32,000 bases of DNA, from positions 180,001 to 212,000 of the forward strand of contig NZ_LN885086.1 of the NCBI RefSeq assembly GCF_001458695.1, given 5' to 3'. The stretch comes from Candidatus Nitrospira inopinata. Lineage in GTDB: Bacteria > Nitrospirota > Nitrospiria > Nitrospirales > Nitrospiraceae. A program made the position numbers and the translations under genes. The notes under the pieces were generated by a model. It was given only the letters and a program-made list of their open reading frames with translations. It made no database searches and was not told where the DNA came from. Positions 8,645 to 32,000 of this stretch are shown in pieces. Each line of letters starts with the position of its first letter. The first letter of the stretch is position 1.

Positions 8645-9986
8645 GGCCGTTTTGCTCTTTCCATTGCCGAATCATCTCATGGACGGATTCGCGCGGCAGC
8701 TTCCCGGTTTCGTTCCGAGGCAGCTTCGGCACGCGGACCAGCGGACGCGGCAGAAAAACGGGATCGACGTGCGCGCGCAACCGATGCAGAATCTCCTCGC
8801 CGCTTTTCTCCGGCGCCACGACGAACGCCATCAATCGAGTCACCAGCCCCGTTTCCTCGTCCGGCAAAACGAAGACTCCGTCGCGCACCCCTTCGATCTG
8901 CAACAATTTCGCGTTCAAGTCGCCGAGCGACACGCGATGTCCCGCCACGTTCACCTGGTCGGCCTTGCGCCCATGAACGACGAAGGTGCCGTCGGAATCG
9001 ATGGAAAGATGGTCCGGCACGGGAACCGGATCGGGAAGATACGGCGCCCGTACCACGCAGGACGTCTCTTCTCGGATCACGCGCACGCCATCCAGCGGTT
9101 TCCATCGGTCACCCGCGATCGTGCGTCGTTCGGCGATGCTGCCCGCTTCGGCGAAGCCGAAAATTTCATGCACCGCCGACTGAAATTGCCGCTCGACCCG
9201 CCGCGCCAGGTCAAGGGCCAGCGGAGCCGTCGCGGACAACACAAGCCCGCCGGGCGGCGCAAGGACGTTTTCGGTGATACAGGCTCGCAGGTGGAGCGGC
9301 GTGGTCACGAGCACCCAGCGCCCCGCCGCTTCGGCCAACACGCTCTGAATATCGGCGGGAAAGAGGGGACGTCCCGCATGCATCGCCAGCCCGTGCACGA
9401 TCGGCAACATCACGGAGGCTTCTAGCCCGAACATGTGCTGATGCGGCACGGTCGCCACCACCGTCACGCGATCCCTCTCCTTGATGCCGAGCCGTGATCC
9501 CGCCGCCCGGGCCACGGTCGTCAAAGCTCCCCATGTTTTCCGATTGGGAACCGGCTTTCCCGTGGTGCCGGAGGTAAACGCCACGGCCACGACTTGGTCC
9601 AACGGAATTCGTGGAACGACCGTCGGCGGCGGCATGGAAGAGGACGCCTGCTCGATTTGTATGGGGATCGACTCGATTTCCTCGCGTTGCTCATCCCGAT
9701 CGGTCAGCGCATAACTTCCGGGAAAGTCGTCGGCAATGCGACGGAGGGCATGGGATGCCCGGCTTTGCGGCAGCAACGTGACTTGGCCGCGGACGATGGC
9801 CGCGGCGAATCCCACCAGAAATTCATAGCGGTTCGAGGCAAGATTGAGGACCGTGGAACGGTCGGGCAAGGATTCGGCAAGGGAAAGCACGTGGGCCAAG
9901 AACTGGCCGGCCGTGCGCAACGCTCCCTGCCCCCACGCCACTACGTCGTCGGAATCGTAGGGACCGATCAACAACGTCTCGTGCAT
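8634..9986 (-). CDS. AMP-dependent synthetase/ligase (starter-unit adenylating enzyme)
   Basis: AMP-binding core motif AFTSGTTGKPV. About 450 aa, matching the short acyl/aryl-ACP ligases of APE clusters. ATG at 9986. Confidence 0.85.
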   Translation of the reverse strand: MHETLLIGPYDSDDVVAWGQGALRTAGQFLAHVLSLAESLPDRSTVLNLASNRYEFLVGFAAAIVRGQVTLLPQSRASHALRRIADDFPGSYALTDRDEQREEIESIPIQIEQASSSMPPPTVVPRIPLDQVVAVAFTSGTTGKPVPNRKTWGALTTVARAAGSRLGIKERDRVTVVATVPHQHMFGLEASVMLPIVHGLAMHAGRPLFPADIQSVLAEAAGRWVLVTTPLHLRACITENVLAPPGGLVLSATAPLALDLARRVERQFQSAVHEIFGFAEAGSIAERRTIAGDRWKPLDGVRVIREETSCVVRAPYLPDPVPVPDHLSIDSDGTFVVHGRKADQVNVAGHRVSLGDLNAKLLQIEGVRDGVFVLPDEETGLVTRLMAFVVAPEKSGEEILHRLRAHVDPVFLPRPLVRVPKLPRNETGKLPRESVHEMIRQWKEQNGHDV

Positions 9987-10001
9987 GGTCCGCGCCGTCG
10001 A

Positions 10002-10274
10002 TCACTTCGTGCGGTTTTTCTCGATGGCCTTGGCCAACGCCCGCAAGGACGAAAAGATGGCCTTGATCTCCGGGTCGCTCGACTTGAGCTGATAGCCGTA
10101 CGTTTGCGAAATGGCCAGCGAGAGCTCGAGCGCGTCGATCGAATCAAGCCCCAACCCCTCGCCGAACAAGGGCGCCTCCGGTTGAATGGACATCGGATCG
10201 ATCTTGAGCTTGAGCGTCCTGACGATCAATTCGGCGAGGTCTCCCTCGATCGGCGACGAACTGGAATGCTCCAT
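10002..10274 (-). CDS. Acyl carrier protein
   Basis: 90-aa product with the phosphopantetheine attachment motif LGLDSIDALEL. The ATG at 10274 lies 2 nt after the methyltransferase stop. The longer ORF-track start (10709) lies inside the methyltransferase gene. Confidence 0.85.
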   Translation of the reverse strand: MEHSSSSPIEGDLAELIVRTLKLKIDPMSIQPEAPLFGEGLGLDSIDALELSLAISQTYGYQLKSSDPEIKAIFSSLRALAKAIEKNRTK

Positions 10275-10276
10275 AC

Positions 10277-11077
10277 CTACACCTGCTCGGCTTCTTTCAC
10301 GGCCCGATAGTCGCGCAAGAGCCCGCTGAACCACTCCTTGACACGACAGTCGCCGAAACCCGATTCCCTCAGCGTTTCGACGATCATGGAGGGAGATACA
10401 CAGTGCTCCGTCGTCTCCCACCAGTACGCCATCAACCGTTTCAGATCTTGATTGCCGGTCCCGGCGGCAAACACCATTCCCAACACGTCCCTGATGTACC
10501 ATCGCAACAGCCGATACAAGACCATGGACCGAGGACGCGAAATCTCCAACAGCAGAACGATCCCTCCCGGCTTCAGCACGCGGCGATATTCGGCAAAGGC
10601 CGCTCGGAGATCCGACACGTGCCGAAGCGCGTACCCCATGCTCAGAAAATCGAAAAACTCGTCGGGAAACGGCAGACGCTCTCCGACCCCTCGCACGAGA
10701 TTGCGACACTGCCCCTTTTGGGCTTCACCCAACATGCCGATGCTGGGGTCGAGTCCGACGACCAAGCCGGACGGCCCCACCAGCCTCAAAGCGCATTGCG
10801 TCACCAGCCCTGGTCCGCAGGCGACATCCAGCACTCGCATGCCAGGCTTCAGCCCCGCCAGTTGCAACGCCTTTTTTCGATACCACAGGCCGGATCCGAA
10901 ACCGGTGGCTTTATCGATGCTCCGATAGTGAGCGGCGGTCCGATTAAACAACTCGTTGAGAAACCCCTGTCTGTCCTCGACCCTTTCGTAATATCGCCGC
11001 AGCGGGGGATGGGGCGCGACGGATCGATCATCCGAACTCGTGCCGCGCTGACTTTGCCGGTCGGCGGATCGAATCAT
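10277..11077 (-). CDS. Class I SAM-dependent methyltransferase (UbiE/MenG-like), first gene of the APE-like operon
   Basis: SAM-binding motif I VLDVACGPGLVT and the post-I acidic residue (VVGLDPS). ATG at 11077. Confidence 0.85.
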   Translation of the reverse strand: MIRSADRQSQRGTSSDDRSVAPHPPLRRYYERVEDRQGFLNELFNRTAAHYRSIDKATGFGSGLWYRKKALQLAGLKPGMRVLDVACGPGLVTQCALRLVGPSGLVVGLDPSIGMLGEAQKGQCRNLVRGVGERLPFPDEFFDFLSMGYALRHVSDLRAAFAEYRRVLKPGGIVLLLEISRPRSMVLYRLLRWYIRDVLGMVFAAGTGNQDLKRLMAYWWETTEHCVSPSMIVETLRESGFGDCRVKEWFSGLLRDYRAVKEAEQV

Positions 11078-11157: not shown

Positions 11158-13104
11158 TCAGAAAAACATGTGGATCGCAAGCACCACGTCGTTGTCGCGA
11201 TCACGATGGGTGTACTCCAGTCGGGCCGCCCAATCGCGAGCCAGCGTATAGCGCGACCCGACATGCCAGCGAATGTCGTCGGATCGGTCGCCGAGCGGAT
11301 ACCGCAGATAGGAGCCCGACCCCATGAGCTTCCAGCGATCCGTCACGTCCACCAACAGGCCCATCGTCACACCTCCTCCCACCCGATGAAAATCCCGGTA
11401 GGCTGGACTGACGTTGGCTTCGGCTTCGGCGAAGAGATAGAACACTTCCCGTTTGAAAACGGCGGCCGACTCGACGGCCCCGCCGACCCCTCCGCTAAAC
11501 ACGCCGTTGCTGCACAACCGACAGCCGCCGTGCCTGATCGTCTGCATGCCCACGTTCACCCTCCACGAGGGCGCGCGGAAGAGTTCATCGATCGGAGCAA
11601 GCGACAGGACATTGATCAACGTGGCCCGTTCGACCCTGGTCTGCTCGGCTCGATTGTAATGCCGCACCGTCAGGCCGAGCGCCTCGATCTGGGCATCCGG
11701 CGTGTATCCCTCTTCAGGATCGAGAAGATCGTGATAGAGCGCCCGGACGGACGCTTCCTCGAAGGTATCCTGATTCCGCCATCCTCCTCCCATCGTCGCG
11801 CGCGTCGTCCGGTGCCCCGCGTCCGGACGTTTCGTATAGGGGGGAATTTCCACGTCCGGCGACGGGATCGGCAATCGGCTCCGCTCGGTCAAGATGCGTC
11901 TGTTGCGCTCCTTATGGACAGCCGTCTCCGGATCGTCGCTCTCGCTCTTATAGCGCAGGTAGTCCGACACGACATCCAGCGCCAACACACGCCTGGGCAT
12001 CGGCAACTCCTTGAAGGAGGCGTCGCCGGCGAAGTCCGGATCCTGCGCCAGCTTCTCGACCAGCTTTGATTCATCGGCCGTGAGCAGCGCCCGTTTCCGC
12101 TTGATGATCGTACTGCGGGACGGCCGATAGATTGCCTCCTTGACCAACCCCGGATAGTCCACGACCGCCCGCACCGTGTCCGCGGGAATCGTCCAGAAAT
12201 GGAACCGATCCCGCAGGCGCAATTCAGGATTCGCATATTCCAGGAGCGACAAAATGTGGTAAGAGCAATTTTCCTTGAAAAAAAAGTAATCAAAATAGGC
12301 GTTGCCCATCTCCCACGCGTGCATGAGCAGCCGATCAAGCTGAACGGGAGAGAGATTGAGCCGGTATTCCCACATGTCGCGATTCTCGATGTCTCGGTAC
12401 GTCTGGACCTTCAGGTAATAGGGGGGGGTGGAAAAAAACCCCTTGTAGCCCCCGAAGATCCCCATGAAGGCGAACTCCACCCCCGCGCCAGCCGGCACGT
12501 CCGCGGCATAGTCGATGGTATAGGCCAACAGCCTCGTCTGTTCCGTCTGACCCCGCTGATCGATCCGCAAGAAGGTATGGCCGAACATGGAAGCCGGATT
12601 GTTCAAGAACGCCGCGGGGAAGATCAGACTGACGCCCTCGGGATTCAGCTCGGCCCGCCATCGTTCATACCGCTCGCAAACCGGCGGTGGAAGCCGTTGC
12701 TCGTCGAACCCCAGTCGTTCCTTGAGCCAATGGTACCGAGCAATGAACGCGCACCGGGCCGGCTGTTTCGAGCGCCCGACCGGCTCGGCTGAGAAAAATG
12801 CCCGGATCGTCGCCTCCAATTCGGCCCGTGGATCGTATTTTCCGCGGGACGACAAGAAAAACCCCGTGTCGTCTTCCTCACTGATCACCCTTCCCCACAG
12901 ATCCGTCCCGTAGTGAAGCAAGAGATGCCATTCCCGCTCATCGGCCAGACGGGAGAGAGCCGCCCGCTCGATCAATTTCCGTTGGTAGCTTTCCGGATCA
13001 AACGACTCGGCCACCTGGCGCCAAGACCCCGCGAGCAGCACGACGATGGCGAGTAGAAAGCGAATCACCGCATCAGAGGGGAACCATGACGGGGCTTCCA
13101 TCAT
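11158..13104 (-). CDS. DUF4105 (Lnb N-terminal-like) domain protein with a putative C-terminal beta-barrel
   Basis: N-terminal signal/anchor (IRFLLAIVVLLAGSW). The central region carries motifs I associate with DUF4105 (NNPASMFGHTFLRID, FDYFFFKENCSYHIL). The C-terminus has alternating amphipathic strands and ends in terminal Phe (LAIHMFF), like outer-membrane barrels. Confidence 0.65.
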   Translation of the reverse strand: MMEAPSWFPSDAVIRFLLAIVVLLAGSWRQVAESFDPESYQRKLIERAALSRLADEREWHLLLHYGTDLWGRVISEEDDTGFFLSSRGKYDPRAELEATIRAFFSAEPVGRSKQPARCAFIARYHWLKERLGFDEQRLPPPVCERYERWRAELNPEGVSLIFPAAFLNNPASMFGHTFLRIDQRGQTEQTRLLAYTIDYAADVPAGAGVEFAFMGIFGGYKGFFSTPPYYLKVQTYRDIENRDMWEYRLNLSPVQLDRLLMHAWEMGNAYFDYFFFKENCSYHILSLLEYANPELRLRDRFHFWTIPADTVRAVVDYPGLVKEAIYRPSRSTIIKRKRALLTADESKLVEKLAQDPDFAGDASFKELPMPRRVLALDVVSDYLRYKSESDDPETAVHKERNRRILTERSRLPIPSPDVEIPPYTKRPDAGHRTTRATMGGGWRNQDTFEEASVRALYHDLLDPEEGYTPDAQIEALGLTVRHYNRAEQTRVERATLINVLSLAPIDELFRAPSWRVNVGMQTIRHGGCRLCSNGVFSGGVGGAVESAAVFKREVFYLFAEAEANVSPAYRDFHRVGGGVTMGLLVDVTDRWKLMGSGSYLRYPLGDRSDDIRWHVGSRYTLARDWAARLEYTHRDRDNDVVLAIHMFF

Positions 13105-13132
13105 TCGACGGAAGCCCCGGGAATCAACGTGG

Positions 13133-13645
13133 CTAGTTCAACAAGGCTTGCGCCAGCAAAGGATCGGCGGCAATGCCTTCGTTCAACGTCTTGACCATGG
13201 AAGCCGGAGACAGATCGCCCGAGGAAACCATCGTGGCATAACGTCCCTGGGCCATGGCAAAGAACGCCTCGTGCTGTTGTTGAGGCACTCCCAGAAGAGT
13301 CGCCATGGAAGCCAGATGCTCGCCGCGCCCTTGCGCCATCTCCTGAGCCAGCGCGTCGGTGTTCAATTCCGCGAACATCGTGGCCTTCTGCTCCGCCCAC
13401 CATCGACCGTCGTCCGTGCATCCCATGGTTCCGGTGGAAATCCCGAAGGTCTGCGTGCCGAACGACCCGTTCGTCGTCGCCATCAAGATCTGCGCCCCCT
13501 TGGTCTTGGCGTGCGGATAATTTTGCCAGGCAAGCTTGCCCAACCCGCAGCCAGGTCCTGTATCCGGCGTGCCGGCGGCCAATGCGATCCCGCCTTGCGC
13601 CACCATCGCCAGCCCGATCACCGCAACCATGCTCAATTTCCTCAT
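13133..13645 (-). CDS. DUF3015-family secreted protein
   Basis: The ATG at 13645 is preceded by AAGGAGGA with a 5-nt spacer. Signal peptide MRKLSMVAVIGLAMVAQGGIALA. Motifs GPGCGLG, TTNGSFGTQTFGISTGTMGC and MAQGRGEHL match my recollection of DUF3015. Confidence 0.65.
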   Translation of the reverse strand: MRKLSMVAVIGLAMVAQGGIALAAGTPDTGPGCGLGKLAWQNYPHAKTKGAQILMATTNGSFGTQTFGISTGTMGCTDDGRWWAEQKATMFAELNTDALAQEMAQGRGEHLASMATLLGVPQQQHEAFFAMAQGRYATMVSSGDLSPASMVKTLNEGIAADPLLAQALLN

Positions 13646-13697
13646 TCGAATCCTCCTTGGTGAGAGTGAGAACCTCCTGTCGGCCATGCCCTGCGCG

Positions 13698-13735
13698 ATT
13701 ATAGACGAATCGCGGCCAAGAGCTACATTTTTTTT
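13698..13735 (-). promoter_or_regulatory. Candidate sigma70-type promoter for the DUF3015/DUF4105 pair
   Basis: Perfect TATAAT on the minus strand (13703-13698), about 50 nt upstream of the ATG at 13645. An A8 tract (13735-13728) sits at roughly -35 to -45, like an UP element. The -35 hexamer is poor. Confidence 0.3.
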
Positions 13736-13804
13736 CCTTAGCCAACCGTCGTCATACCGTGCCGATCGTCATCGCTCCGGTTTCGCCCATGACTTGTGAG
13801 CTGT

Positions 13805-14959
13805 TCATGGCTCCGCGGACAGGGGGACACCCAACGATGCCCGCACCGCCGCCCACTCGAAGGTGAACGGCACGGTGGACAGCTTCGGCATGGCCGCCAG
13901 CTCGGCCTTCAATCGTTCGGCCCGCCCCTGGCTCATCGGATGGGTCGAGAGCCACTCCATCCGTCCTTCGTCTGTTTCAGAGAGCCGTTCAAAGAAACTG
14001 ATCATGCCGGAGGGGTCGATCTTTGCCCGATAGAGGAGTTGCAAGCCGGTCACATCGGCCTCGGTTTCTTGTTCCCGACCGAATTTCAGCGTCATCAATT
14101 CCACGCCGAACTGTTTCATCAGACCGGCCAAGCCCTGTTGATCTCCAAACACGATGGACGCCGCCGCGACAAGGCCGACCCGCTTTACGATCCGCTCAAG
14201 CCCGTGCCGTTGCAAGACATGGTTCAGCTCATGACTCAGCACGCCGGCCACCTCTTCCGCGCCGGCCGCTTCTTTCATCAAACCGGTGAACACGACGATG
14301 TAGCCGCCCGGCAACGCAAACGCGTTCACGACGTCGCTCTTGACGACCGTGACTTCGAACTTGTAGGGGTTGTTTGGAATCTGCTCGACGAGGCGCCGCG
14401 TCATCTCTTGGACCGCCGACACGGCGGGACCTTCCTTGAGAATGGCCTGACGAGCCAGAAAATCTCTATAGGCCGACTCGCCTAGTTTTTGTTCCCACTC
14501 CGGCGGAATCCGCTCGACGGCCAGGGCGACCAGCAGGTCGCCTCCCCGCCACAGTCCCGCCGACAGGACCAGGATCGCGCCGGCGACGACGCCCCAGACC
14601 ATTCGGCGTCTCCGGCGAACCAGCCTGGCCCGCTCAGCCGCCTGTTCGAAGGGAACGTGCAACTGTTCCGGAGCCGATCGGCGAAACGATCGGATCAGAT
14701 CCGCATCCTTGAGATACAGGGCTCGTTCGCCTCGATCGCCGGTCCACTTGAGCACGAGTTGATCATGGTCCAATCCGCCCACGGACACCGAAAGAACCGT
14801 GAACGGAACCTCTTCCGACCAACCGACCGGCGACTCCGACACAAACGTGACCGTCAGCCCCTGTCCGCCGAGGCGAACCAGGCACGGAGCGCCGCTTGCA
14901 GGCAACTCATGGCCGAAACACAGTGCGTTGGGAGACGAAGACATCGGAGGCGCCGTCAC
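13805..14959 (-). CDS. M48-family zinc metalloprotease with N-terminal cytoplasmic domain and a single TM helix
   Basis: HExxH motif (SHELNHVLQRH) and a downstream third ligand region (EQETEAD). One TM helix (MVWGVVAGAILVLSAGLW) follows an N-terminal domain of about 125 aa. The start is GTG 14959 or ATG 14944. Confidence 0.85.
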   Translation of the reverse strand: MTAPPMSSSPNALCFGHELPASGAPCLVRLGGQGLTVTFVSESPVGWSEEVPFTVLSVSVGGLDHDQLVLKWTGDRGERALYLKDADLIRSFRRSAPEQLHVPFEQAAERARLVRRRRRMVWGVVAGAILVLSAGLWRGGDLLVALAVERIPPEWEQKLGESAYRDFLARQAILKEGPAVSAVQEMTRRLVEQIPNNPYKFEVTVVKSDVVNAFALPGGYIVVFTGLMKEAAGAEEVAGVLSHELNHVLQRHGLERIVKRVGLVAAASIVFGDQQGLAGLMKQFGVELMTLKFGREQETEADVTGLQLLYRAKIDPSGMISFFERLSETDEGRMEWLSTHPMSQGRAERLKAELAAMPKLSTVPFTFEWAAVRASLGVPLSAEP

Positions 14960-15032: not shown

Positions 15033-15716
15033 TCACTCGGAGACCGGGATAAACTGCCTGATCCAGGCGCCGAAGCCGCCGGGATTGCGACTCTGAATGT
15101 AGACGACACCGGGCCCGCGGAATCGGCACACGAACCCTTCGCCGGACGTGAGACTCGCCACCCATCCGGACGACGCCCGCTCGATACTGTAGGAAGTGGT
15201 GGCAGACCAGGCCACCATGTGGCTGTTATCGACGATGTATTCTTGATCCGGTTTCAAATCGATCCGGTGAATCGCTCCGAAACTGTTCAGGATCAAGGCG
15301 CCTTTCCCTCCGATCTTCAGAATGAAAAACCCCTCTCCACCCATAAGCCCGCGGGTGAAGCTTTGCATCTTACTCTCGATGCTTACCGTGTCGGCGCCGG
15401 CGAGAAATCCGTCTTTCTGCACCATGTACTCGTTGACCCCGTCGAGCTCGAGGACGACGATCTCGCCGGGCACCGTCGGCGCCAACAAGACCTCGCCCGG
15501 GCCCCGGCTGGCCCGCAACGTTTGAAAGAAGAATTTCTCTCCTGTGAGCAATTTTCTGGACAGCGCACCGAGAAAGCCCCCTTCCATCTTGCTCTCGACG
15601 TCGATGGTCGGCGATGCCCCCACCATGGCGCCGGACTCTGCCTTGATCTGCTCTCCGGCCGCCAGCTCGACGCGCACCATCGGAAAAGCCCCTGGATATA
15701 AGATCTCGCTTCGCAT
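15033..15716 (-). CDS. AIM24 / TIGR00266-family protein
   Basis: 227 aa with family-typical segments (AESGAMV, LLTGEKFFFQTL, GGEGFFILKIGGKGALILNSFGAI, IVDNSHMVAW). ATG at 15716. Confidence 0.8.
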   Translation of the reverse strand: MRSEILYPGAFPMVRVELAAGEQIKAESGAMVGASPTIDVESKMEGGFLGALSRKLLTGEKFFFQTLRASRGPGEVLLAPTVPGEIVVLELDGVNEYMVQKDGFLAGADTVSIESKMQSFTRGLMGGEGFFILKIGGKGALILNSFGAIHRIDLKPDQEYIVDNSHMVAWSATTSYSIERASSGWVASLTSGEGFVCRFRGPGVVYIQSRNPGGFGAWIRQFIPVSE

Positions 15717-15819: not shown

Positions 15820-18800
15820 TCAGTCAGGCTTGGGGGTCATTGACGGCTTCGCCGACGCCGATGTCAATGCCGATACCCTGGAGGCGGGGATGGCCACCAC
15901 GACATCATATTCCGGATCGCCGTCTTGGTCTTTTCCGTCACGGCCGACGCTGTATAAGACTCCTTTGCTCAGATTCACCAACATCGGAAGCCCGGTGTAC
16001 GGGTCATAGAAATCTTGGCCGGCCTTGGCGATACGGGAAAACAGCTCGGCATCCGCCCCCCCGCGACGGATCCACGCCTGCAAGCTGGCGAGACGAAGGT
16101 GAGCCTCCGCATCGACGGCCATGCCATGGTAGCCGTCCCACGCCGGCAACGGATCGAGCCCGATGATATTTTCAATGGGATTCGCCAGCACGTCCGTCAT
16201 CGTCTCGGCCGGAGACCGACTAAACTCGCTCCGTTTCGGAAAGCCCCGGTGCCGCCCCTCATTGACCGCCTTGTACGAAGCGTCGTAATAGGCGGCGTAG
16301 CCGTTCAACCGACGTTGCTTGGGCAAGGGAAACCACGAGACAAGGGTTGCGTAGAATGAGTGCGCTTCTTCGGTCTCTGCTTTCAGTTGAGCGTCGTATG
16401 ACGCGGCGGCCCAAGCAAGCTCGCCGTGCATCGGCCAACGGATCGAGAGTTCGGCCTGGTTCAACGGCCTGAGCAGATGGGATAACCGGCCGACGTGTTT
16501 GGCGTCGAAATCGGGATCGGCCAAGAGCCCCGACGCCACCGTCGCGTCGTCGCGGACCGCTTGGATCGCCAGTGCCTTGATCGCAAGGGTTTTGGCCTGG
16601 GCCAACACGATCCGCCAAGCCTCCATGTCCGCTTCCAGTCTCTCTATGCCGACATCGGTCTGCTGAAGGAATCCCTCCGCAATATACAGATGATGGGCGA
16701 ACGTGATCGAATCGCACGGCGGAGCCACAGCCAGTCCGAATCCCCAGTCTTCAAACGACAGGCGTTGCCACTGTCTATACCGACCGAGCATCGCCTCTCC
16801 TTCACCGGCCCATCCATTGAGAAGACCGCGGTTCGCCTTCAATGCTCCGACCGGATCCCTCCCCCTGATCCATCCACTCAACACTCTCGCGGAGGCATGG
16901 CCATGATCGGTTGGAGGAAGTCCGTCTTGACCTCCGAGGCACGCTCTCGCTCGGTTGTTCGCACCTTGTCGCTCCGCATGCAGCCTCAATCCCGTCTGGA
17001 TCGGATCCTGCCCGGCTGGCGCATCGAATCCCAGCAGCAACAGATAGCCGTTCGTATGGGGATCCGACAAGGTACGAGGAGGAGCGGCCGTGAGACGTTG
17101 ATAGAGAGGAGATGGCGCTTCTTCCATCGCGACCCATGTCAAGCCGACCGCCACGATCCCTAACACAACCGCGACACAGGCCAGAGAAATCAACGCGACA
17201 AGGGACAGGACCATCGCGTTCGTCGTGGAGACGCAGGACCGAAGCCATTCAGAGACTTGAACCCCGACGCGACTCGGGAACCCCGGCCGTTTTGTCCTGA
17301 GCCGTTTCGTCGGCGAAGAAACGTCCGCCTTTCTACTTTGAGACTCGCCGGCCGTCTCAAACAGCACATCGACGGCCGCTGAAGCAGTCGACGTGAAAGT
17401 GTTGCGCTCTTGGTCATCCGCTGGAAGCCTCGGCCGAATTCTTCCTGTCGAGGAAATCGTCTCAATCGACGATCTGACCGGCGGTTCATCGGCCAATCGA
17501 ATCGGCCCCCAACTCGCAGCCGTTTCCTCCGCCCTTGACGACGGCTCACGCGGCGATTCCCAGGCCACGTCATCGGCCGGTTTACCAGCCGCTTCCTCGT
17601 CATTGAGGTCCCTGGTTGCCGGTCCCTCCGTCGCGCTATACAAAGGCGGCTCAGGCACAGCCTCACTCGCCAGGGGTGACGCGACCGTCTCTTCAAATTC
17701 CTCCGCTTCGAGTCGATCTCTTGACTCTTCAACCTCAACCGACGTCTCAGCGAGAACCGGCTGATCCGTCTCGTCCGCCGTATTGGAGGTCGCCGCTTCC
17801 TCCTCCGGCGGCATCGGAACCTCGATCGGCGCGGCCGCCGTTGACGCCCGTTCATCGATGACGTCTTCATCGAACACGTCGAAGACCGGCTTGTTGGTAT
17901 CGGTCTCTTTCGCACCCGAGTCCGTCACCGGAGCATCGGGGATCGCGCAACTCTGCTCCTCCACTTCCTCTCTTCTCTCCTCCGATTCTTCCGACAGAGA
18001 CGAGGATGAAAGGATGGCGAACGGAGGGGTTTCTCCGGTATCGGCGATCTCCGGTTCGAGAACCGGTTCAGGGTCGTCCGCTACCGACGACGCAGCGGCA
18101 ACGGAATCGCCGGGCGCTTCCGATGAATCGATCCGCTCCGCAACCGCAAGCTCGACGGACCCTGCGTCACGTTGTGCTTCGGGAATTTCGATCGTGGCAT
18201 CCGGAACTTGATCCCAGGGAACCGGCGCCTCCTCCGACGTTACCCGAATCGTTTCATCCTGCCAGGACGCCCCATCCGCTTCATTCGACTCATTCGACAG
18301 GCCTTCTTCTTCCACCATCGAGGCAGGGGCGTCGGCCTCAGAGTGAATAGAAAAACCTAACGGCTGCTCGATTGCATAGGACTCATCGGCCTCCGGAGAG
18401 GCGACTCCTGTGGCTGGTCTTTCTTCTATCGGGTCGGGAGGGGACGATTCTGGAACCGTATCCGGCATGCCGACCGCGTGGCAGTCCGCTTCGCCGACCT
18501 GCTCTCTCCCGACCGATGTGGTCGGATCGGTCTGACAATCGTCCGGTCCGGATGGATGCTCACATGGCCGAGTTGGCTCTTCTGTCGTGCGGCCGGACAG
18601 GGCATCGAGCGCAGTCTCTTCCACCATCGAAGGGGACAGGTCGTCATTTGAAAGGGCCGATGAAAGCGCCGACGGTGGTGTACCGGGCTCGGCGGCGCGA
18701 TTCACGTCGGTTGACAAGGCGAGCGTCGAATCGGCTGATTGATCGGAGACGTCGGAAACCGGCTCACAGGAGACCTCACCCTGTCCGTTCACGGTCACGT

Positions 18801-19815
18801 CCGGAACACTGACCGCCGTGCCGGACGGCGCCGTGAGCGCATCGCCGGCCGGTTCATCCGACGACCATTGCGCAGCCGTGTCAGTTGTCGCGTCTCCATC
18901 AAGCGACGACGATTTGGGTGATTCAGAATCGAAAGCGGCTTCTACGGCGTGGCCATTCGACTCCGACTCGACGGTCGATTGCCTCTCACCAGGCGATGAA
19001 TCCAGCAGCCATTCGGCGCCATTTGTTTCGGCACCGTTTGTTTCAGCCGGAGGCTCTTGCTGCCGAATCGCGTCGCGGAGGCCGTCGTCGATCGCTCTAT
19101 CACCGACGATTTCACCTCCATCGTCGGCGGTTTCACCGGAAACGGCGACGTCATCGGGACCGATGACGTCGCCCGCAAAATCATCGTCGCTCGGCGACGA
19201 ATCGTGAGTGGAAACATCCCCGGGCCTGGCGATGAGTTCCCCCGTTTGCGGATCAAAATACCGGTTCAAGCGGATGGCGGGGGGAGACGCCGGAGCAAGG
19301 CTCCTGATTTGTTGATACAGCCTGGCCGCGTGCGGGGGATCTTCGAGATCGGGATCTTCGATCAAGATGTCGATCGCCTTGGCATATTCGGCCACCGCAT
19401 CCAATATCTGCCCTTTGTCTTGGTAGATTGAGCCGAGTTTTTCGAGATAGGGAACACACCGGGGCCCCGCCGCCAAATATTCCCGCAGCAAAGATTCCGC
19501 AAGCCAATAGTCTTGCCGCGCAAACGCTTCATCGATGAGCGAATCAAACGCTTGTTTGGCTGGAATCAGACTGCCCAGGCGAAGGTGAAGGGTCGCAAAA
19601 AGCCGGCGCGCCTCCATATTATGGGGGTCCATCGCCAGCAATTCTTTCAGCGATGCCGACGCCCGCCCATACTTCCCCGCGTTCATCTGCGTGATGGCTT
19701 CTTCCAGCAGGGCGGTCTTCCTGCCGTAGCCGGAACCGGCCTGCTTCAGCCCGCGCACACGGCCGGTCTCGGTCTTGTCTTTCTCTTTTACTGTTCTTTT
19801 TTTATTCGGTGGCAC
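15820..19815 (-). CDS. Giant bitopic membrane protein: N-terminal TPR-like domain, roughly 650-aa acidic low-complexity region, one TM helix, 430-aa periplasmic domain
   Basis: Uninterrupted 1331-codon ORF with a GTG start at 19815 (AAGG 7 nt upstream). aa 35-165 are TPR-like helical repeats. aa 200-830 are D/E/S/P/T/A-rich with almost no basic residues. A basic patch (KRLRTKRPGFPSR) precedes the TM helix MVLSLVALISLACVAVVLGIVAVGLTWVAM (aa 868-897, nt about 17125-17214). The C-terminal domain belongs to no family I recognise. Confidence 0.8.
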   Translation of the reverse strand: MPPNKKRTVKEKDKTETGRVRGLKQAGSGYGRKTALLEEAITQMNAGKYGRASASLKELLAMDPHNMEARRLFATLHLRLGSLIPAKQAFDSLIDEAFARQDYWLAESLLREYLAAGPRCVPYLEKLGSIYQDKGQILDAVAEYAKAIDILIEDPDLEDPPHAARLYQQIRSLAPASPPAIRLNRYFDPQTGELIARPGDVSTHDSSPSDDDFAGDVIGPDDVAVSGETADDGGEIVGDRAIDDGLRDAIRQQEPPAETNGAETNGAEWLLDSSPGERQSTVESESNGHAVEAAFDSESPKSSSLDGDATTDTAAQWSSDEPAGDALTAPSGTAVSVPDVTVNGQGEVSCEPVSDVSDQSADSTLALSTDVNRAAEPGTPPSALSSALSNDDLSPSMVEETALDALSGRTTEEPTRPCEHPSGPDDCQTDPTTSVGREQVGEADCHAVGMPDTVPESSPPDPIEERPATGVASPEADESYAIEQPLGFSIHSEADAPASMVEEEGLSNESNEADGASWQDETIRVTSEEAPVPWDQVPDATIEIPEAQRDAGSVELAVAERIDSSEAPGDSVAAASSVADDPEPVLEPEIADTGETPPFAILSSSSLSEESEERREEVEEQSCAIPDAPVTDSGAKETDTNKPVFDVFDEDVIDERASTAAAPIEVPMPPEEEAATSNTADETDQPVLAETSVEVEESRDRLEAEEFEETVASPLASEAVPEPPLYSATEGPATRDLNDEEAAGKPADDVAWESPREPSSRAEETAASWGPIRLADEPPVRSSIETISSTGRIRPRLPADDQERNTFTSTASAAVDVLFETAGESQSRKADVSSPTKRLRTKRPGFPSRVGVQVSEWLRSCVSTTNAMVLSLVALISLACVAVVLGIVAVGLTWVAMEEAPSPLYQRLTAAPPRTLSDPHTNGYLLLLGFDAPAGQDPIQTGLRLHAERQGANNRARACLGGQDGLPPTDHGHASARVLSGWIRGRDPVGALKANRGLLNGWAGEGEAMLGRYRQWQRLSFEDWGFGLAVAPPCDSITFAHHLYIAEGFLQQTDVGIERLEADMEAWRIVLAQAKTLAIKALAIQAVRDDATVASGLLADPDFDAKHVGRLSHLLRPLNQAELSIRWPMHGELAWAAASYDAQLKAETEEAHSFYATLVSWFPLPKQRRLNGYAAYYDASYKAVNEGRHRGFPKRSEFSRSPAETMTDVLANPIENIIGLDPLPAWDGYHGMAVDAEAHLRLASLQAWIRRGGADAELFSRIAKAGQDFYDPYTGLPMLVNLSKGVLYSVGRDGKDQDGDPEYDVVVAIPASRVSALTSASAKPSMTPKPD

Positions 19816-20478: not shown

Positions 20479-20793
20479 TTTATTGGCTTGATCGAAGAAG
20501 AGACGTCTTGCCCGGCACCGTTCCCTTATCGGCAGATTGCAGAGAATAAATAAGAGCAAGAAGAGCCTGTCGGGACTCCAGATTCACCGAGTTCCTCTGT
20601 GTCCCCCGAAAGAGGATCGGCGGACGACGGGCATCCGAGTTATGGAACGGCCGCTTTTGGCTTTTGTTGTCTCGCCCATAGCCCTTGTGATACGGTCAGT
20701 CGTTGCGCGGCAACCGGTGCCCGCGTTACCATTGAAAGCTCTTGCAGGCGTAGAGGCGGGGGGGGCCGGTTCGTATTCCGCTAGGTGCAAGTC

Positions 20794-22311
20794 ATGAGAA
20801 GAATGGCGGCTGTTTGTGTCTGTGCGGGGCTATGCGCCCTGACGCTCTTGTGTCCGCAGGATCTGTGGGCCCAGGGAACCGGCGCTCAACCGGCCAAGGT
20901 CGCGCTTGACTTCAACGAGGTGGAGATCCCCGTTCTTGTCCGTTTTATCAGTGAGCTGACAGGAAAAAACTTTGTCCTGGATGACACAATCAAAAAGCAA
21001 GCGGGCAAGATTTCCGTCTACTCCCCCACCAAGGTCACGAAAGAGCAAGCCTACCAGATGTTCGTCTCGGCGTTGGAAGTTGCACGTCTGGCCGTTGTTC
21101 CCAAGGGCAACGTCTATCAGATCGTGCAAATGGGCGATCTGCCTCCCGAGCGCGGCGTCTTCGTCTATCGCCTCAAACACGCGAACGCCTCGGACCTCGC
21201 GGCCGTCTTGACCAATCTCGTGGCGCGCTCACAGACGGTCGCCCAAATGGCTCCCGGCATGAGACCGCCCATGAGACCGCTGACGGAATTCGAAGCGCCC
21301 GTCCAAGTCTTCGCCGACAAGGCGACGAATTCCATCATCATCAGCTCAACCAAGGCAGCCTATAGCCAACTGCAATCCGTCATCCGCGATCTGGATGTCC
21401 GACGCCATCAGGTGTTCGTGGAAGCCGTCATCCTTGAGGTGCAGGTCGACCGTCTAAGACAAATCGGAACCGATCCGACGCAAGTGCTCGGCGCCTGGAG
21501 GTCAGGATCCGCCCAAGGGCTGGGAGGGTTCAACCGGGCCCCGGAAGATCTTGCTTTGGTCGCCCAGGCCATCGCGGGCGGTGCGACGGGAGGAGCGTTT
21601 ACCGTGCTGAATACGGTCAATGTCCGCGCCTTCATGCAACTGCTCATGAACATGACCGACACAAACATTCTGTCCACGCCTCAGGTATTGGCGGCGGACA
21701 ATCAAAAGGCGAAAATCGTCGTCGGAGAAAATCGGCCGTTCCCGACCGGACAGGCTCAGGGCATCACCGGGGGCACCTTGGTCACGATCGAACGGAAAGA
21801 CGTGGGAGTCACATTGGAGATTACGCCGCAGGTGCTTGAAGACGACATGATTCGTCTGGAGATCAAACAAGAAATCACCGCCATATCGGAAGCCGTGGCC
21901 CAAACCATCGGATCGGGAACCGCCGCCATTCCCGTCGGCCCCACAACCACCAAACGTTCGATGGAAACCACGACGATCGCCCATGACCAGCAGACCCTTG
22001 TCGTCGGAGGGCTGGTCCGCGACAACATTACAGTCAACGAGCGAAAGGTGCCGTTTTTCGGCGACATTCCTTGGCTCGGCTGGCTGTTTCGGTCCCAAAG
22101 CCGGACGATGGAGAAGCTGAATCTTCTGGTCTTTCTCACTCCCCATTTGGTTCGGGATGACGTGGATATGGTCGAGCTGAACGCGAGAAAGGCAAAAGAA
22201 ATCAACGTGCTGCAACGAGAAAACCGCATCGAGGAGCCGACCAGACTGAAACAGGATGTTTTAGAGCGACTTGAGCGTCCCGATACCACACCTCTCGACT
22301 CTCAGCGGTGA
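20794..22311 (+). CDS. Short secretin (GspD/PilQ superfamily; N0 + one N1-type domain + secretin domain)
   Basis: Signal peptide MRRMAAVCVCAGLCALTLLCPQDLWA. N0-like segment (FNEVEIPVLVRFISELTGKNFVLDD). Secretin core (VFVEAVILEV, ILSTPQVLAADNQKAKIVVGENRPF, VGVTLEITPQV, VPFFGDIPWLGWLFRS, LLVFLTPHLV). ATG at 20794; the track start at 20785 is GTG. Confidence 0.85.
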   Translation: MRRMAAVCVCAGLCALTLLCPQDLWAQGTGAQPAKVALDFNEVEIPVLVRFISELTGKNFVLDDTIKKQAGKISVYSPTKVTKEQAYQMFVSALEVARLAVVPKGNVYQIVQMGDLPPERGVFVYRLKHANASDLAAVLTNLVARSQTVAQMAPGMRPPMRPLTEFEAPVQVFADKATNSIIISSTKAAYSQLQSVIRDLDVRRHQVFVEAVILEVQVDRLRQIGTDPTQVLGAWRSGSAQGLGGFNRAPEDLALVAQAIAGGATGGAFTVLNTVNVRAFMQLLMNMTDTNILSTPQVLAADNQKAKIVVGENRPFPTGQAQGITGGTLVTIERKDVGVTLEITPQVLEDDMIRLEIKQEITAISEAVAQTIGSGTAAIPVGPTTTKRSMETTTIAHDQQTLVVGGLVRDNITVNERKVPFFGDIPWLGWLFRSQSRTMEKLNLLVFLTPHLVRDDVDMVELNARKAKEINVLQRENRIEEPTRLKQDVLERLERPDTTPLDSQR

Positions 22312-22497
22312 AGGCCCGGTTCCGTTTCCCATTCCGCCATATCCTTCCACCGGCATCTCTATATCGAGAGAATCTTACACCGCGCCTCAGAGAAGCGTAT
22401 CCCTCTTTTTCGGCTTGCCCCTCCCCTCCTGAGAGGGATAGCTCCTTCAGGGTTGTCCCGATAGACTCCCTCGCAGACGATGCTTGAGGAGGAAGCC

Positions 22498-22896
22498 ATG
22501 CACGATTCGCGGTCATCGCGCCGTTATCCCGTCGCGTATCCGGTGATTTTCAGAGGCGCTCCATTCGTAGGCGAAGGAACGATCGCCGATCTGTCCCTCA
22601 CTGGCTGTTCCATCGTCTGCGATCGAACGGCTCTCGCCGACAGTGACATCAAGCTCAGTGTGATTTTCCCTGATCCGACTCTGTCGCTGTTCATCGAGTT
22701 GGGGAAAATCCGGTGGGTAAGAGGCAACGTCTTCGGCGTCGAATTTCTGCGGATGCCGACGATCACCCGTCACCGTATGGACCACGTGCTGCGACAACAG
22801 GGAAACACGTCAGTGAGCTCCCTGTCGGGCCAGGCTCCGCTCAGCAAGGAGATTCCATTTCCCCAGGGCCATTTCCTCTCTAAACGATCAGCTTAG
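22498..22896 (+). CDS. PilZ-domain protein (putative c-di-GMP receptor)
   Basis: The ATG at 22498 is preceded by GAGGAGGAAGCC. The sequence has an RxxxR motif (RSSRR) and a DxSxxG motif (DLSLTG) at PilZ-typical spacing. Confidence 0.75.
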   Translation: MHDSRSSRRYPVAYPVIFRGAPFVGEGTIADLSLTGCSIVCDRTALADSDIKLSVIFPDPTLSLFIELGKIRWVRGNVFGVEFLRMPTITRHRMDHVLRQQGNTSVSSLSGQAPLSKEIPFPQGHFLSKRSA

Positions 22897-23828: not shown

Positions 23829-24317
23829 TCATCACCCTCCCACGGTAAAGACTATTCGCCGCGTTGTGATCGCGAAGTCTGATGTGAGTCGGATTTCCAC
23901 GAGATTCAAGAGAGCGGAACAAGATGGCCGTGCCTTCATCACGCTCGAACGATTCCTCGTTTCCGCCGTTGCAGCCATCGACGTGCAAGTCCAAATAACC
24001 GTTGCCAAATATTTTTTTCCTTGCTGAAGACGGCGCCAACAGTAGCAACCCCTCCTTCATTTATTAAAATAGATAAAACGGATTAGAGGTATCGGTAAAT
24101 CCAATATTCCGACAGTGCGATCGCAGAGGGCAATACGACTGTTTCCGTGAGAATCGGGTCGGCATCCGCCGCAACTCATCCAACAACTTATTGCTAACAA
24201 CTTATATTGAAATACCTCGTGGCCGTGCGGCGAAGCCCGGAACGGACAGGAAATAGCAAGGAGCGCGACGGAACAGATGAAGGTACTACCGAGAAGAACC
24301 CGGCGGCCGTGGAAGAT

Positions 24318-25190
24318 TTATCGCCCCAACGCCTTTTTGACTGCTTGGCCGATTTCGGCCGGGTTTTTGACGACCGTCACACCGGCCGATTCGAGGGCTT
24401 TCATCTTTTCGGCCGCAGTGCCTTTGCCGCCGGAGATGATCGCACCGGCATGACCCATACGGCGGCCAGGAGGCGCCGTGATCCCGGCAATGAAGCTGAT
24501 GACCGGTTTCTTGACGTGCTGTTTGATGAACTCGGCCGCCTTTTCTTCCGCGTCGCCCCCGATCTCGCCGATCATCACGATGGCCTGTGTTTCCGGATCC
24601 TTTTCGAACAACGGCAGGACATCGACAAATCCCGTCCCGTTGACCGGATCGCCCCCGATACCGACACAGGTCGTCTCGCCCAGCCCCAAGGTCGAAAGCT
24701 GATGCACGGCTTCATAGGTCAGGGTTCCGCTGCGGGAAACGACCCCGACGACCCCGCGCTTGTGGATGAAGCCGGGCATGATGCCAATCTTGGCTTCGTC
24801 CACCGTGATGACGCCGGGACAGTTCGGCCCGATCAATCGGACGTCGCGACCACGCAAGGCCCGTTTCACCTTCACCATGTCGTTGACCGGAATGCCTTCG
24901 GTGATACAGATAATGAGTTTGATGCCGGCGTCGGCGGCTTCGAGAATCGCGTCGGCGCAGAAAGGCGGCGGCACGAAGATCAGCGAGGTGTCGCATTCGG
25001 TTTTTTTCACCGCTTCGAGCACGGTGTTGAAGACGGGAATTCCCTCGACCTCCTGCCCGGCCTTGCCCGGCGTCACACCGGCGACGACTTTCGTCCCATA
25101 AGCCTTGCATTGCGTCGCGTGGAACGAGCCTTCCTTGCCCGTAATCCCCTGCACGACCACCCGCGTGTTCTTGTTGACCAGTATGCTCAC
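24318..25190 (-). CDS. sucD: Succinyl-CoA synthetase alpha subunit
   Basis: Strong resemblance to SucD throughout ([28 protein letters not shown], phosphohistidine loop [10 protein letters not shown]). The GTG start at 25190 is preceded by GGAGAG. Confidence 0.95.
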
Positions 25191-25201
25191 GACGCTCTCC
25201 T

Positions 25202-26380
25202 TTACGCTGCTTTGCCGGTCAGTTTTACGATCTTCTGCGCCGCTTCCCAGAGATCATTGGCGACATCCAATTTCAAACCGGACTCGGCCAACAACTTGCG
25301 GCCTTCTTCCGCGTTCGTGCCTTGCAGCCGGACCACCAGCGGCACGGTCATCTGCACTTCCTTCGCCGCTTCGATGACGCCGTGGGCGATCCGCTCGCAG
25401 CGAACGATCCCGCCGAAAATGTTGATGAAGATGCCCTTCACATTCGGATCTTTGAGCAGAATCCGAAAACCGGCTGCCACGGTTTCTTTCGTCGCCCCGC
25501 CGCCCACGTCCAAAAAGTTCGCCGGTTCGCTGCCGGCCAGTTTGATGACGTCCATCGTGGCCATGGCCAACCCCGCGCCGTTGACCATGCAGCCGATGTT
25601 GCCGTCGAGCTTCACGTAATTCAAGTTGTTGGCCGTCGCCTCGATTTCCAACGGTTCTTCTTCGTTCAAATCCCGCATCTGCTGAACATCGGGATGTTTA
25701 AAAAGTCCGTTGTCGTCGAACGACACCTTGCCGTCCAACGCGATCAGTGTTTTCTCCTTGGTGATGATGAGGGGATTGATCTCGATCAGCGCCGCGTTCT
25801 TGTCCATGAACAGGCGATAGAGATTCTCCATCAACTTCACGAACGGATTGAGCACCGCCGGTTCAATCTGATGCAGCCCAAGAGCAAACGCAACGTTGCG
25901 TCCATTGTGCCCCTGGAAGCCGACCGCGGGATCGATCGCTTCCTTGATTATTTTTTCAGGCGTGTGGGCCGCGACTTCCTCGATCTCCATTCCCCCTTCG
26001 GTGCTGGCGATAAACGTGGGGTATCCGCTGTCCCGATCGACCAGGATCGACAAGTAGAGTTCCTTGGCGATGTTCGCCCCTTCCTCGATCAACAGACGGC
26101 GGACCACCCGTCCCTTTGGTCCCGTCTGATGGGTAACGAGGGTCTTGCCGAGCAATTCTTTGGCAAGACCGGGAACCGCGCCCTTGTCCTTCGTCAGCTT
26201 GACTCCTCCGGCTTTCCCACGCCCACCGGCGTGGATCTGCGCCTTGACGACGAAGACGGGCGTGTCGAGTTCATTCGCCCACGCCGTCGCGGCCTCAGGA
26301 GACGTGATTTCTTTTCCCTGCGGCACCGGCACGCCGAACTGGGCGAACAACGACTTGGCTTGGAATTCATGCACGTTCAT
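25202..26380 (-). CDS. sucC: Succinyl-CoA synthetase beta subunit
   Basis: Near-collinear with E. coli SucC as I recall it ([73 protein letters not shown]). Confidence 0.95.
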
Positions 26381-26529
26381 TCTCTACCTCACAACTCCTA
26401 CGGACGGCGGCGAAGGCGTTTCTCACTGCGCGGACTATTCCCACCCATCCCCTGAACGCACCGAGACGCGCCCTCACCCCCTGCGATCACCGCCCGATTG
26501 TTTTTACAGTCTGTTCGATCTTGCCTGCA

Positions 26530-26560
26530 CGGCGGGGGAACACAAGAAATGCCCCCGTCG
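26530..26560 (-). other. GC-rich stem-loop 10 nt downstream of the flavoprotein stop
   Basis: cggcggggg (26530-26538) pairs with cccccgtcg (26552-26560) around a 13-nt loop. One position is G.U on the plus strand and a C/A mismatch on the minus strand. No U-tract follows on the minus strand. Confidence 0.35.
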
Positions 26561-26570
26561 CCGCTCCCCC

Positions 26571-28154: not shown

Positions 28155-28231
28155 GTTTCGTGCTCGCCGACGGTCATTCGTATTTCATTATGATGAAGCC
28201 GGCCCAAACGCCCCCCGGCGACCGTCCGCTT

Positions 28232-28942: not shown

Positions 28943-28970
28943 AATTCACGCGAGTCGGAGGAAAGGAAAG

Positions 28971-28994
28971 GCGTGAGGGGACCGTCCCTCACGC
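28971..28994 (-). terminator. Terminator/attenuator-like hairpin downstream of icd
   Basis: Perfect 9-bp GC-rich stem (gcgtgaggg / ccctcacgc) with a 6-nt loop, 18 nt after the icd stop. On the minus strand it is followed by the pyrimidine/U-rich run CUUUCCUUUCCUCC. Confidence 0.45.
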
Positions 28995-29012
28995 TCTCAT
29001 CCGTCAAGGCGA

Positions 29013-32000
<2,988 letters not shown>

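Follow-up and report, generated by a model that had tools for sequence, protein, structure and literature searches.

A stretch of 32,000 nucleotides from Candidatus Nitrospira inopinata (contig NZ_LN885086.1, positions 180,001 to 212,000; hereafter the window, to which all coordinates refer) carries a gene for a protein of 1331 amino acids (aa) made of an N-terminal tetratricopeptide repeat (TPR) module, a very long polyanionic linker, one transmembrane helix, and an exported C-terminal domain (C-domain). Sequence comparisons indicate that the gene encodes a real and conserved bitopic protein of the inner membrane, specific to the Nitrospira lineage. This protein is most likely a membrane-anchored scaffold, not an enzyme or an annotation error. 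We infer for it the function of a hub, in which an acidic tether, docking motifs, and a distal TPR are anchored at the membrane. It would thus be a non-homologous analogue of FimV/HubP, with reversed polarity, and also of PodJ, with the same polarity. We prefer this reading tentatively, with a confidence that stops a little short of even.

The product of the gene matches exactly, in public records, the protein of Candidatus Nitrospira inopinata deposited as CUQ65192.1 / WP_162264677.1 / UniProt A0A0S4KPS8. The database name of CUQ65192.1 is 'tetratricopeptide repeat protein', with nothing further. A word-indexed search retrieved 715 relatives, of which we examined the best 120 (1048–1564 aa). 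Every organism named by the source among these 120 belongs to Nitrospira/Nitrospiraceae. The layout is common to all 120: an N-terminal TPR, an acidic linker, one transmembrane helix, and a C-domain of about 440 aa. These homologues come from independent assemblies, complete genomes among them. We made a codon-level comparison with the orthologue in locus L083, which is 93% identical. The indels between the two genes span 7, 6, 1, and 2 codons and are all in frame. The ratio of non-synonymous to synonymous substitution rates (dN/dS) is 0.155 in the TPR, 0.47 in the linker, and 0.075 in the C-domain, values that are rough because dS is just 0.05–0.11. The linker ratio and the in-frame indels argue that the linker is translated and under relaxed yet real purifying selection.

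A preliminary description of this DNA, made from its letters alone, had noted an open reading frame (ORF) that is uninterrupted in spite of many shadow ORFs lying opposite it. Both observations hold, and the gene lies on the minus strand, which the description did not state. The GTG start codon is preceded by a putative AAGG ribosome-binding site. The many shadow ORFs in the opposite strand and in other frames of the gene are expected because the GC content is about 60%. The high GC of the window, its many long shadow ORFs, and the poor conservation of the linker sequence could suggest an artefact of annotation or assembly, e.g., two genes joined by a frameshift or an untranslated spacer. This explanation is opposed by the same unbroken architecture in 120 out of 120 homologues from independent assemblies, by the record of the identical protein on 19 contigs, by conserved islands inside the linker, by the in-frame indels, and by a linker dN/dS below 1. 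We rejected it on the basis of this conservation, the indels, and the dN/dS values, and consider its probability negligible. The description had also named the loss or frameshifting of the acidic region in close relatives as a sign of such an artefact; the region is present and in frame in the 120 homologues and in the L083 orthologue.

The order of the parts read in the preliminary description (basic tail, TPR, acidic linker, positive patch, transmembrane helix, C-domain) agrees with Pfam and AlphaFold2 (AF2), and the composition fits the description almost number for number (Table 1). A basic N-terminal tail is a family trait: among 112 homologues the median net charge is +9 over about 32 aa. 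The AF2 confidence (predicted local distance difference test, pLDDT) of the tail is about 50. In the following module, four Pfam models match aa 1–190 above their cut-offs: TPR_16 (36.0 bits, cut-off 32.7), TPR_19 (33.9, cut-off 25), TPR_2 (31.7, cut-off 27), and TPR_8 (26.7, cut-off 25.7). AF2 models nine helices at aa 32–183 with a pLDDT above 90, and Foldseek relates the module with a probability of 1.0 to structures of consensus TPR, MamA, OGT, PilF, and kinesin light chain (KLC). These matches are generic (E about 1e-4 to 1e-3, identity 16–21%). They include KLC2 with a bound tryptophan-acidic peptide (6f9i), where the similarity is again that of TPRs in general. The TPR is the most conserved part of the protein in sequence, with 86–98% identity at aa 41–120 across 119 homologues. 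It belongs to the generic TPR superfamily and is the sole part of the protein that can be filed.

The linker is acidic along its whole length. Between aa 200 and 830 there are 150 D/E and 32 K/R residues (23.8% D+E, 5.1% K+R), for a net charge of −118 and a pI of 4.05, and D, E, S, P, T, and A make up 65.6% of the residues. Such acidity is peculiar to the protein and does not extend to the proteome at large: twelve other proteins of the window have 8–14% D+E with balanced K+R. In an AF2 model of aa 1–870, nearly all of aa 200–845 shows no secondary structure and has a pLDDT below 50. Column identity in the linker is about 15% in the 119 homologues. Among the 120 homologues, its length ranges from 356 to 875 aa (median 686) and its net charge from −43 to −131, i.e., −0.09 to −0.21 per residue. 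The linker therefore seems to be kept for length and charge and not for sequence, with the exception of a few near-invariant short motifs of Trp/Phe-acidic type. A tandem-repeat scan of the linker found only four short two-copy repeats of 9–15 nt and no calsequestrin-like pattern, and on this basis we rejected a linker built from repeats like those of HubP. A 15-nt tandem duplication encodes AETNG twice in the linker (19012–19044, minus strand, aa ~258–268), and slippage-type length change of this kind probably drives the variation in linker size.

Three motifs stand out in the conserved columns of the linker. In motif 1, P533, W534, D535, V537, and I544 are each kept in at least 109 of the 119 homologues. 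Its core (aa 529–546) has zero non-synonymous changes relative to the L083 orthologue and is the sole linker stretch longer than a few residues with a pLDDT of at least 50 (mean 66). The conserved columns of motif 2 are W (100 out of 119), I (110), R (107), and F (99), and those of motif 3 are V (108), L (111), and F (105). Two additional linker motifs, 'MPWE' and 'GFSWESVF', occur in most relatives. When the family is considered more broadly, the pattern [MLVIP]PW[DE] is found in 165 of 174 long-linker proteins, with a mean of 2.1 copies versus 0.04 in shuffled linkers (about 50-fold), and in just 1 of 25 short-linker relatives. The VDVLFE-type motif 3 is present in 88 of the 174 long-linker proteins. 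Such conservation is typical of short linear interaction motifs that lie within a chain kept for charge and length.

One strongly hydrophobic segment, the transmembrane helix, stands out in the hydropathy profile. The Kyte-Doolittle 19-mer maximum is 3.05 at this helix, and no other segment exceeds 1.6. About 866 aa precede it and 434 aa follow. The segment just before it (aa 830–868) has seven K/R and two D/E, a net charge of +5, and contains C861, which is kept in 116 of 119 homologues; AF2 extends a helix at aa 848–869 continuously into the transmembrane helix. The preliminary description had deduced an N-in/C-out topology from the positive-inside rule. The same orientation is indicated by the positive patch before the helix and the acidic 'EE' after it, by the lack of an N-terminal hydrophobic segment, and by stand-alone paralogues (see below) that consist of an N-terminal signal-anchor followed by the C-domain only. 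These features put the first 866 aa on the cytoplasmic side and the C-domain outside the cytoplasmic membrane.

The C-domain has 434 aa of ordinary composition and is about 60% identical across homologues. Its AF2 model is confident (pLDDT 81.9, predicted template modelling score 0.81) and mostly alpha-helical. It has about 20 helices, and the near-invariant tail FYDP[YF]TGxPMLVN..LYSVGxDGKDQD lies in a small beta-sheet at the C-terminal end. C959 and C1034 are invariant in 119 out of 119 homologues, as would fit a disulfide. The domain has no match in Pfam or NCBIfam, and the same is true of its stand-alone forms. Sequence and profile searches of the PDB gave no relative (best E about 1), Foldseek against the PDB gave a best E of 0.17 with a TM-score no higher than 0.22, and Foldseek against BFVD gave only noise. 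No enzymatic, ligand-binding, or catalytic family was detected. The domain thus remains of the unknown kind that the preliminary description had assigned to it, the terminal domains map to no characterised family beyond the generic TPR, and the enzymatic motif that the description had failed to see in the translation is equally missing from the family searches. We considered a tail like that of pseudopilins (GspG-like; YDPYTG...LYSVG.DG.D). This reading was rejected because there is no match to Pfam T2SS_G, and because searches of the PDB with a 53-aa profile of the tail and with Foldseek both lack a pseudopilin.

To place the protein in its family, we made an exhaustive HMMER search with the C-domain, which resulted in 393 representative proteins. 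They take three forms: TPR with a long acidic linker (1200–1780 aa); TPR with a shorter and far less acidic linker (820–1120 aa), where the whole cytoplasmic part has a net charge of −7 to −45; and stand-alone, signal-anchored C-domain proteins (470–500 aa). In species-representative genomes there are 309 relatives, the best 80 of which are all from Nitrospirota. Some metagenome-assembled genomes hold both a long and a stand-alone copy. The existence of forms with short, little-acidic linkers, together with the presence of PW[D/E] in just one of 25 of them, argues that the long acidic linker and its motifs are derived. They would represent a joint innovation of the Nitrospira lineage on an older protein with the order TPR, transmembrane helix, periplasmic domain. 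In two distant short-linker members, a hybrid histidine kinase (PAS-HisKA-HATPase-receiver) is encoded immediately upstream on the same strand (L084:2731–4311 and L086:494–2035), which could reflect a signalling connection in these lineages.

The stand-alone paralogues are homologous to the long form across the whole periplasmic domain (31–35% identity, E 1e-50 to 1e-70) and share the tail YDPFTGxPM...LYSVGxDGxD. Unlike the long form, they lack a cytoplasmic part and have no Cys among the invariant columns of their alignment. Their gene context is also different: Peripla_BP_2, FecCD, ABC, and TonB-dependent receptor genes for the stand-alone form versus secretin/PilZ and AIM24/M48 for the long one. 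In 73 of 78 Nitrospiraceae loci (L003–L082), the stand-alone gene lies divergently beside a Peripla_BP_2-FecCD-ABC(-TonB-dependent receptor) operon; of the five remaining loci, four have less than 1 kb of sequence upstream. An example is the stand-alone gene L015:7953–9419 with the import genes L015:1897–7445. The paralogue is therefore a candidate accessory of siderophore, haem, or cobalamin-type uptake.

The systems that most resemble the protein are the polar organisers of other bacteria. FimV and HubP have a periplasmic LysM domain, a transmembrane helix, an extensive acidic unstructured cytoplasmic region whose sequence is poorly conserved and whose size varies, and a terminal TPR as the client interface, and they act by diffusion-capture; the cytoplasmic region of FimV from P. 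putida has 25% D+E and a pI of 3.75, and FimV is cited as promoting the assembly of the type IV pilus secretin (PMC12918733). The preliminary description had called cytoplasmic polyanionic disordered regions of this length unusual in bacteria. This was overstated because FimV/HubP already show long cytoplasmic acidic regions, which are among their defining traits (PMC12918733). Read from the membrane, the Nitrospira protein has the same succession as FimV/HubP/TspA of Gammaproteobacteria: a periplasmic anchoring domain, one transmembrane helix, a long acidic unstructured region, and a distal TPR. The acidity of its linker (23.8% D+E and pI 4.05) is close to that of P. putida FimV, the linker, too, varies in length and is little conserved, and there is an association with a secretin, here by gene adjacency only. 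In contrast, the polarity is reversed, with an N-terminal TPR and a C-terminal periplasmic domain. The full protein and the C-domain have no match to LysM or another peptidoglycan-binding domain (Pfam/NCBIfam, E ≤ 0.1), the NCBIfam output contains no FimV model, and the N-terminal TPR matches generic models only. The periplasmic part is a helical fold of about 430 aa without known relatives, there are no acidic repeats of HubP type, and the best 80 of 309 loci all belong to Nitrospirota. Polar localisation and peptidoglycan binding are traits of FimV/HubP, whereas the protein described here is known from its sequence. Because it has no LysM, no FimV domain, reversed polarity, and an unrelated periplasmic fold, we regard it as an analogue and not as a member of FimV/HubP, and the resemblance is probably convergent.

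PodJ provides the second comparison. It has a cytoplasmic scaffold, a charged intrinsically disordered region (IDR) that binds a client, a transmembrane helix, and periplasmic domains (PMC8980812). PodJ of Caulobacter crescentus and the Nitrospira protein share the order of an N-terminal cytoplasmic scaffold, a charged IDR before the transmembrane helix, and a C-terminal periplasmic part. However, the cytoplasmic part of PodJ consists of coiled coils, while the cytoplasmic fold here is a TPR with no coiled coil. The TPR and peptidoglycan-binding domains of PodJ are periplasmic, while the periplasmic part here has no match to either. The linker is also several times longer and uniformly acidic, where the PodJ IDR has blocks of opposite charge. 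With a cytoplasmic TPR and without coiled coils, the protein is therefore not a PodJ. A third likeness is to peptide-binding TPRs (those of KLC, MamA, and PilF), with which it shares a canonical TPR array. The [MLVIP]PW[DE] motifs of the linker resemble in form the W-acidic motifs bound by KLC, a resemblance to the KLC motif rule that draws on the title of a PDB entry. The similarity of the TPRs themselves is generic, and binding of the motifs by this TPR is hypothetical.

In the hub model, the periplasmic domain would fix the protein at a site of the envelope. The acidic chain would repel itself, form an extended tether held off the anionic membrane, and present the short motifs of the linker as docking sites. 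The TPR would be a peptide-binding platform that captures cytoplasmic clients and positions them relative to the envelope site. It may also bind the PW[D/E] motifs of the linker, in cis or in trans, leading to multivalent self-association. A more specific version combines several of these steps. In it, the ultra-conserved TPR recognises the PW[D/E] and LF[E/D] motifs in the linkers of neighbouring molecules, and the resulting self-associating, membrane-tethered network or condensate organises envelope machinery, e.g., the orphan secretin encoded nearby. The protein would then be an inverted-polarity hub like FimV/HubP that evolved independently with a new periplasmic fold, and the long acidic linker and its motifs would have arisen jointly from a shorter, near-neutral ancestor. 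This full scenario is speculative, and we think it improbable as a whole.

Several points weigh against a hub. Its clients are hypothetical. Homology to FimV, HubP, or PodJ finds no backing in Pfam or NCBIfam, where there is no LysM, FimV-domain, coiled-coil, or peptidoglycan-binding match. The disorder of the linker is a prediction drawn indirectly from low pLDDT. The tie of the paralogue to metal or cofactor import operons hints at a periplasmic activity unrelated to a hub. Finally, a literature search by the accessions of the protein found no paper that mentions it.

Table 1. Parts of the 1331-aa protein and the neighbouring genes discussed in the text, in window coordinates.
Feature	Position	Strand	Basis or remark
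Whole gene	15820..19815	−	Single unbroken ORF, 1331 aa; GTG start at 19815, stop codon 15820–15822
Basic N-terminal tail, aa 1–34	19714..19815	−	Net charge +8 (composition)
Cytoplasmic TPR module, aa 35–190 (about four repeats, nine helices)	19246..19713	−	Pfam, AF2, Foldseek
Polyanionic linker, predicted disordered, aa 200–830	17326..19218	−	Composition, AF2
Linker motif 1, aa 529–548, EAPVPWDQVPDATIEIPEAQ (family consensus APMPWDQVQESxIxIPPAQ)	18172..18231	−	Conserved columns
Linker motif 2, aa 769–778, WGPIRLADEP (family consensus W-E-S-I-R-F-I-E-E-P)	17482..17511	−	Conserved columns
Linker motif 3, aa 812–822, SAAVDVLFETA (family consensus AAAVDVLFESS)	17350..17382	−	Conserved columns
Basic juxtamembrane segment, aa 831–866	17218..17325	−	Positive-inside patch; conserved SCxSTT motif, C861
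Single transmembrane helix, aa ~867–897	17125..17217	−	Kyte-Doolittle
Exported (periplasmic) C-domain, aa 898–1331, tail FYDPYTGLPMLVN..LYSVG.DGKDQD	15823..17124	−	AF2
Divergent orphan short secretin	20785–22311	+	Pfam/NCBIfam; context only
PilZ protein, stand-alone, after secretin	22480–22896	+	Pfam/NCBIfam; context only
AIM24-family gene (PF01987 / TIGR00266)	15033–15716	−	Pfam; downstream, same strand
M48 peptidase (BepA/LoiP-like)	13805–14959	−	Pfam; downstream, same strand

The neighbourhood of the gene is rich in envelope genes: the secretin, PilZ, the BepA/LoiP-like M48 protease, Lnb_N, and LolA/MMPL lipid export. The secretin has 508 aa, with N0, one N1 (Secretin_N), and the secretin domain, and scores 344 bits with the GspD model, just below the cut-off of 351. 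The pair of secretin and PilZ genes adjoins the TPR gene in the Nitrospira loci L001, L002, and L083. In the distant short-linker forms L084, L085, L086, and L088 the secretin is not beside the gene, and L087 has the PilZ gene only. The 32-kb window contains no genes for the ATPase, platform, or pilins of a type II secretion system (T2SS) or type IV pilus (T4P). Gene order is kept in Nitrospira genomes where the orthologues are only 41–53% identical, and the whole region is collinear in this genus, including unrelated genes of the reductive tricarboxylic acid (TCA) cycle. These lie in a block at 24318–31947 (minus strand), also collinear in other Nitrospira, with both succinyl-CoA synthetase subunits (alpha and beta), the flavoprotein and Fe-S subunit of succinate dehydrogenase/fumarate reductase, a monomeric isocitrate dehydrogenase, and a protein with the aconitase C-terminal domain. 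Two shadow ORFs of the plus strand overlap this block, one (24207–25619) on the real sucD gene (24318–25190, minus strand), the other (28160–29077) on the gene of the Fe-S subunit (28232–28942, minus strand).

Downstream of the TPR gene, AIM24 and M48 are retained in L001, L002, L054, L083, L085, and L088, often with intervening genes, and in the distant short-linker loci AIM24/M48 or DUF3015/Lnb_N recur at some distance. The AIM24 gene is the most persistent downstream neighbour, including beside the distant members in L085 and L088. Other Nitrospira have an Amidohydro_2 gene between the TPR gene and AIM24 (L001:14098–16024, L002:14477–16361, L088:4039–5520). In L001 and L002 a gene for a four-helix bundle (bAvd / 23S-rRNA-IVP) is inserted too, and N. 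inopinata has neither insertion in the window. Between the TPR stop codon and the AIM24 start are 103 bp that contain a sigma-70-like promoter match (15808–15779, minus strand: TTGACA, an 18-nt spacer, CACAAT; 10/12), of a kind whose number in the region is not above chance. It suggests that AIM24 is transcribed separately from the TPR gene. We rejected an operon with AIM24/M48, given the genes inserted in several genomes and the promoter-like site in the gap; AIM24 and M48 probably form a separate transcription unit. Because the region is collinear, tolerates insertions, and has this promoter-like site, we see the neighbours as a loose synteny block of envelope flavour and not as an operon.

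Further downstream on the same strand are the DUF3015 and Lnb_N proteins, then an aryl-polyene-like cluster for lipid biosynthesis and export. The DUF3015 protein is an ORF of 184 aa (13133–13687, minus strand, E = 7e-42). Since it is a clear member of its family, the overlapping ORF of 214 aa in another frame (13101–13745, minus strand, TTG start), which has no family match, is a shadow. The aryl-polyene-like cluster (473–11077, minus strand) encodes GT2, SDR, a KS/CLF-like pair, MMPL, LolA_3, an LpxL-like acyltransferase, an AMP-ligase, and a UbiE-type methyltransferase. It also includes a FabA/ApeI-like dehydratase (8273–8644) and an acyl carrier protein that is the C-terminal part of the ORF 10002–10709.

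What else could the protein do? The alternative that we take most seriously, even if it is unlikely, is that the periplasmic domain is the working part. It would do the envelope job of the paralogue linked to import by TonB-dependent receptors and FecCD-type ABC transporters, e.g., the handling of a ligand or a contact with an outer-membrane protein or the cell wall. The TPR and acidic region would be a later regulatory addition that couples this job to a cytoplasmic partner, in a form of trans-envelope signalling. By dN/dS (0.075) the C-domain is the most constrained part of the protein, and it is an independent module, as its stand-alone forms of 470–500 aa indicate. The presence of these forms beside the import operons in 73 of 78 loci, the derived state of the long acidic linker deduced from short-linker forms of little acidity, and the histidine kinase upstream of two such forms all go in the same direction. 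On the other hand, the long form is never beside an import operon, the pairing of the paralogue with the operon is divergent and not operonic, and the searches detected no ligand-binding or catalytic family. The sequence of the TPR is even more conserved than that of the C-domain, which argues against a dispensable addition.

We give a lower probability, one that makes it rather implausible, to a role as dedicated accessory of the divergent orphan secretin. Modelled on the promotion of PilQ secretin assembly by FimV, the protein would be the inner-membrane partner that positions, assembles, or gates the channel, with an input of cyclic di-GMP through PilZ. Directly upstream of the gene, in divergent orientation, lie those of the secretin and PilZ, both in the window and in Nitrospira loci where the proteins are 41–53% identical, a PilZ gene is upstream in the distant locus L087 too, and the role of FimV in the assembly of the T4P secretin is cited (PMC12918733). 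Yet the intergenic gap is 0.5–1 kb, the collinearity of the region extends to the unrelated reductive TCA genes, so that adjacency may be plain synteny, and the short-linker relatives of L084, L085, L086, and L088 have no secretin beside them. The window is also devoid of T2SS or T4P ATPase, platform, and pilin genes, and the pseudopilin-like C-terminal tail is unsupported. Because the association holds within Nitrospira and not in the distant short-linker relatives, we kept it as a rival explanation, and the case for a functional link to the adjacent secretin/PilZ is weak. A function of the bulk polyanion itself is very unlikely. Here the linker would be a membrane-tethered buffer of cations or polyamines, or it would mimic nucleic acids and thereby sequester basic proteins that bind DNA or RNA. 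This would explain why the homologues keep net charge (−43 to −131) and length but not sequence, and the conserved basic N-terminal tail (median +9) makes electrostatic interactions plausible. It would leave unexplained the near-invariant aromatic motifs, the ultra-conserved TPR, and the requirement for a periplasmic domain. Relatives with nearly neutral short linkers retain all other parts, and the linker has no repeats beyond the four two-copy ones of 9–15 nt and no calsequestrin-like patterns. Among the roles that the preliminary description had offered for the acidic region, those of protein-binding scaffold and spacer are thus favoured by the conserved linker motifs, while cation binding and DNA mimicry find no support.

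Nitrospira are key nitrifiers, the complete ammonia oxidiser N. inopinata among them, and their cell organisation is almost wholly unexplored. The family described here is among their largest conserved lineage-specific proteins and is annotated only as TPR or hypothetical proteins. Its layout matches that of the best-studied bacterial polar organisers, with unrelated parts and the opposite polarity. The C-domain defines a new family of periplasmic domains, absent from Pfam and the PDB, with a paralogue that is tightly associated with operons of TonB-dependent import. If the hub model is true, the protein would be an entry point to cell polarity and to the placement of envelope machines in Nitrospira. 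It would also be a case of convergent evolution of the design that joins a periplasmic anchor, an acidic tether, and a TPR, and a natural system in which to ask what long polyanionic tethers contribute.

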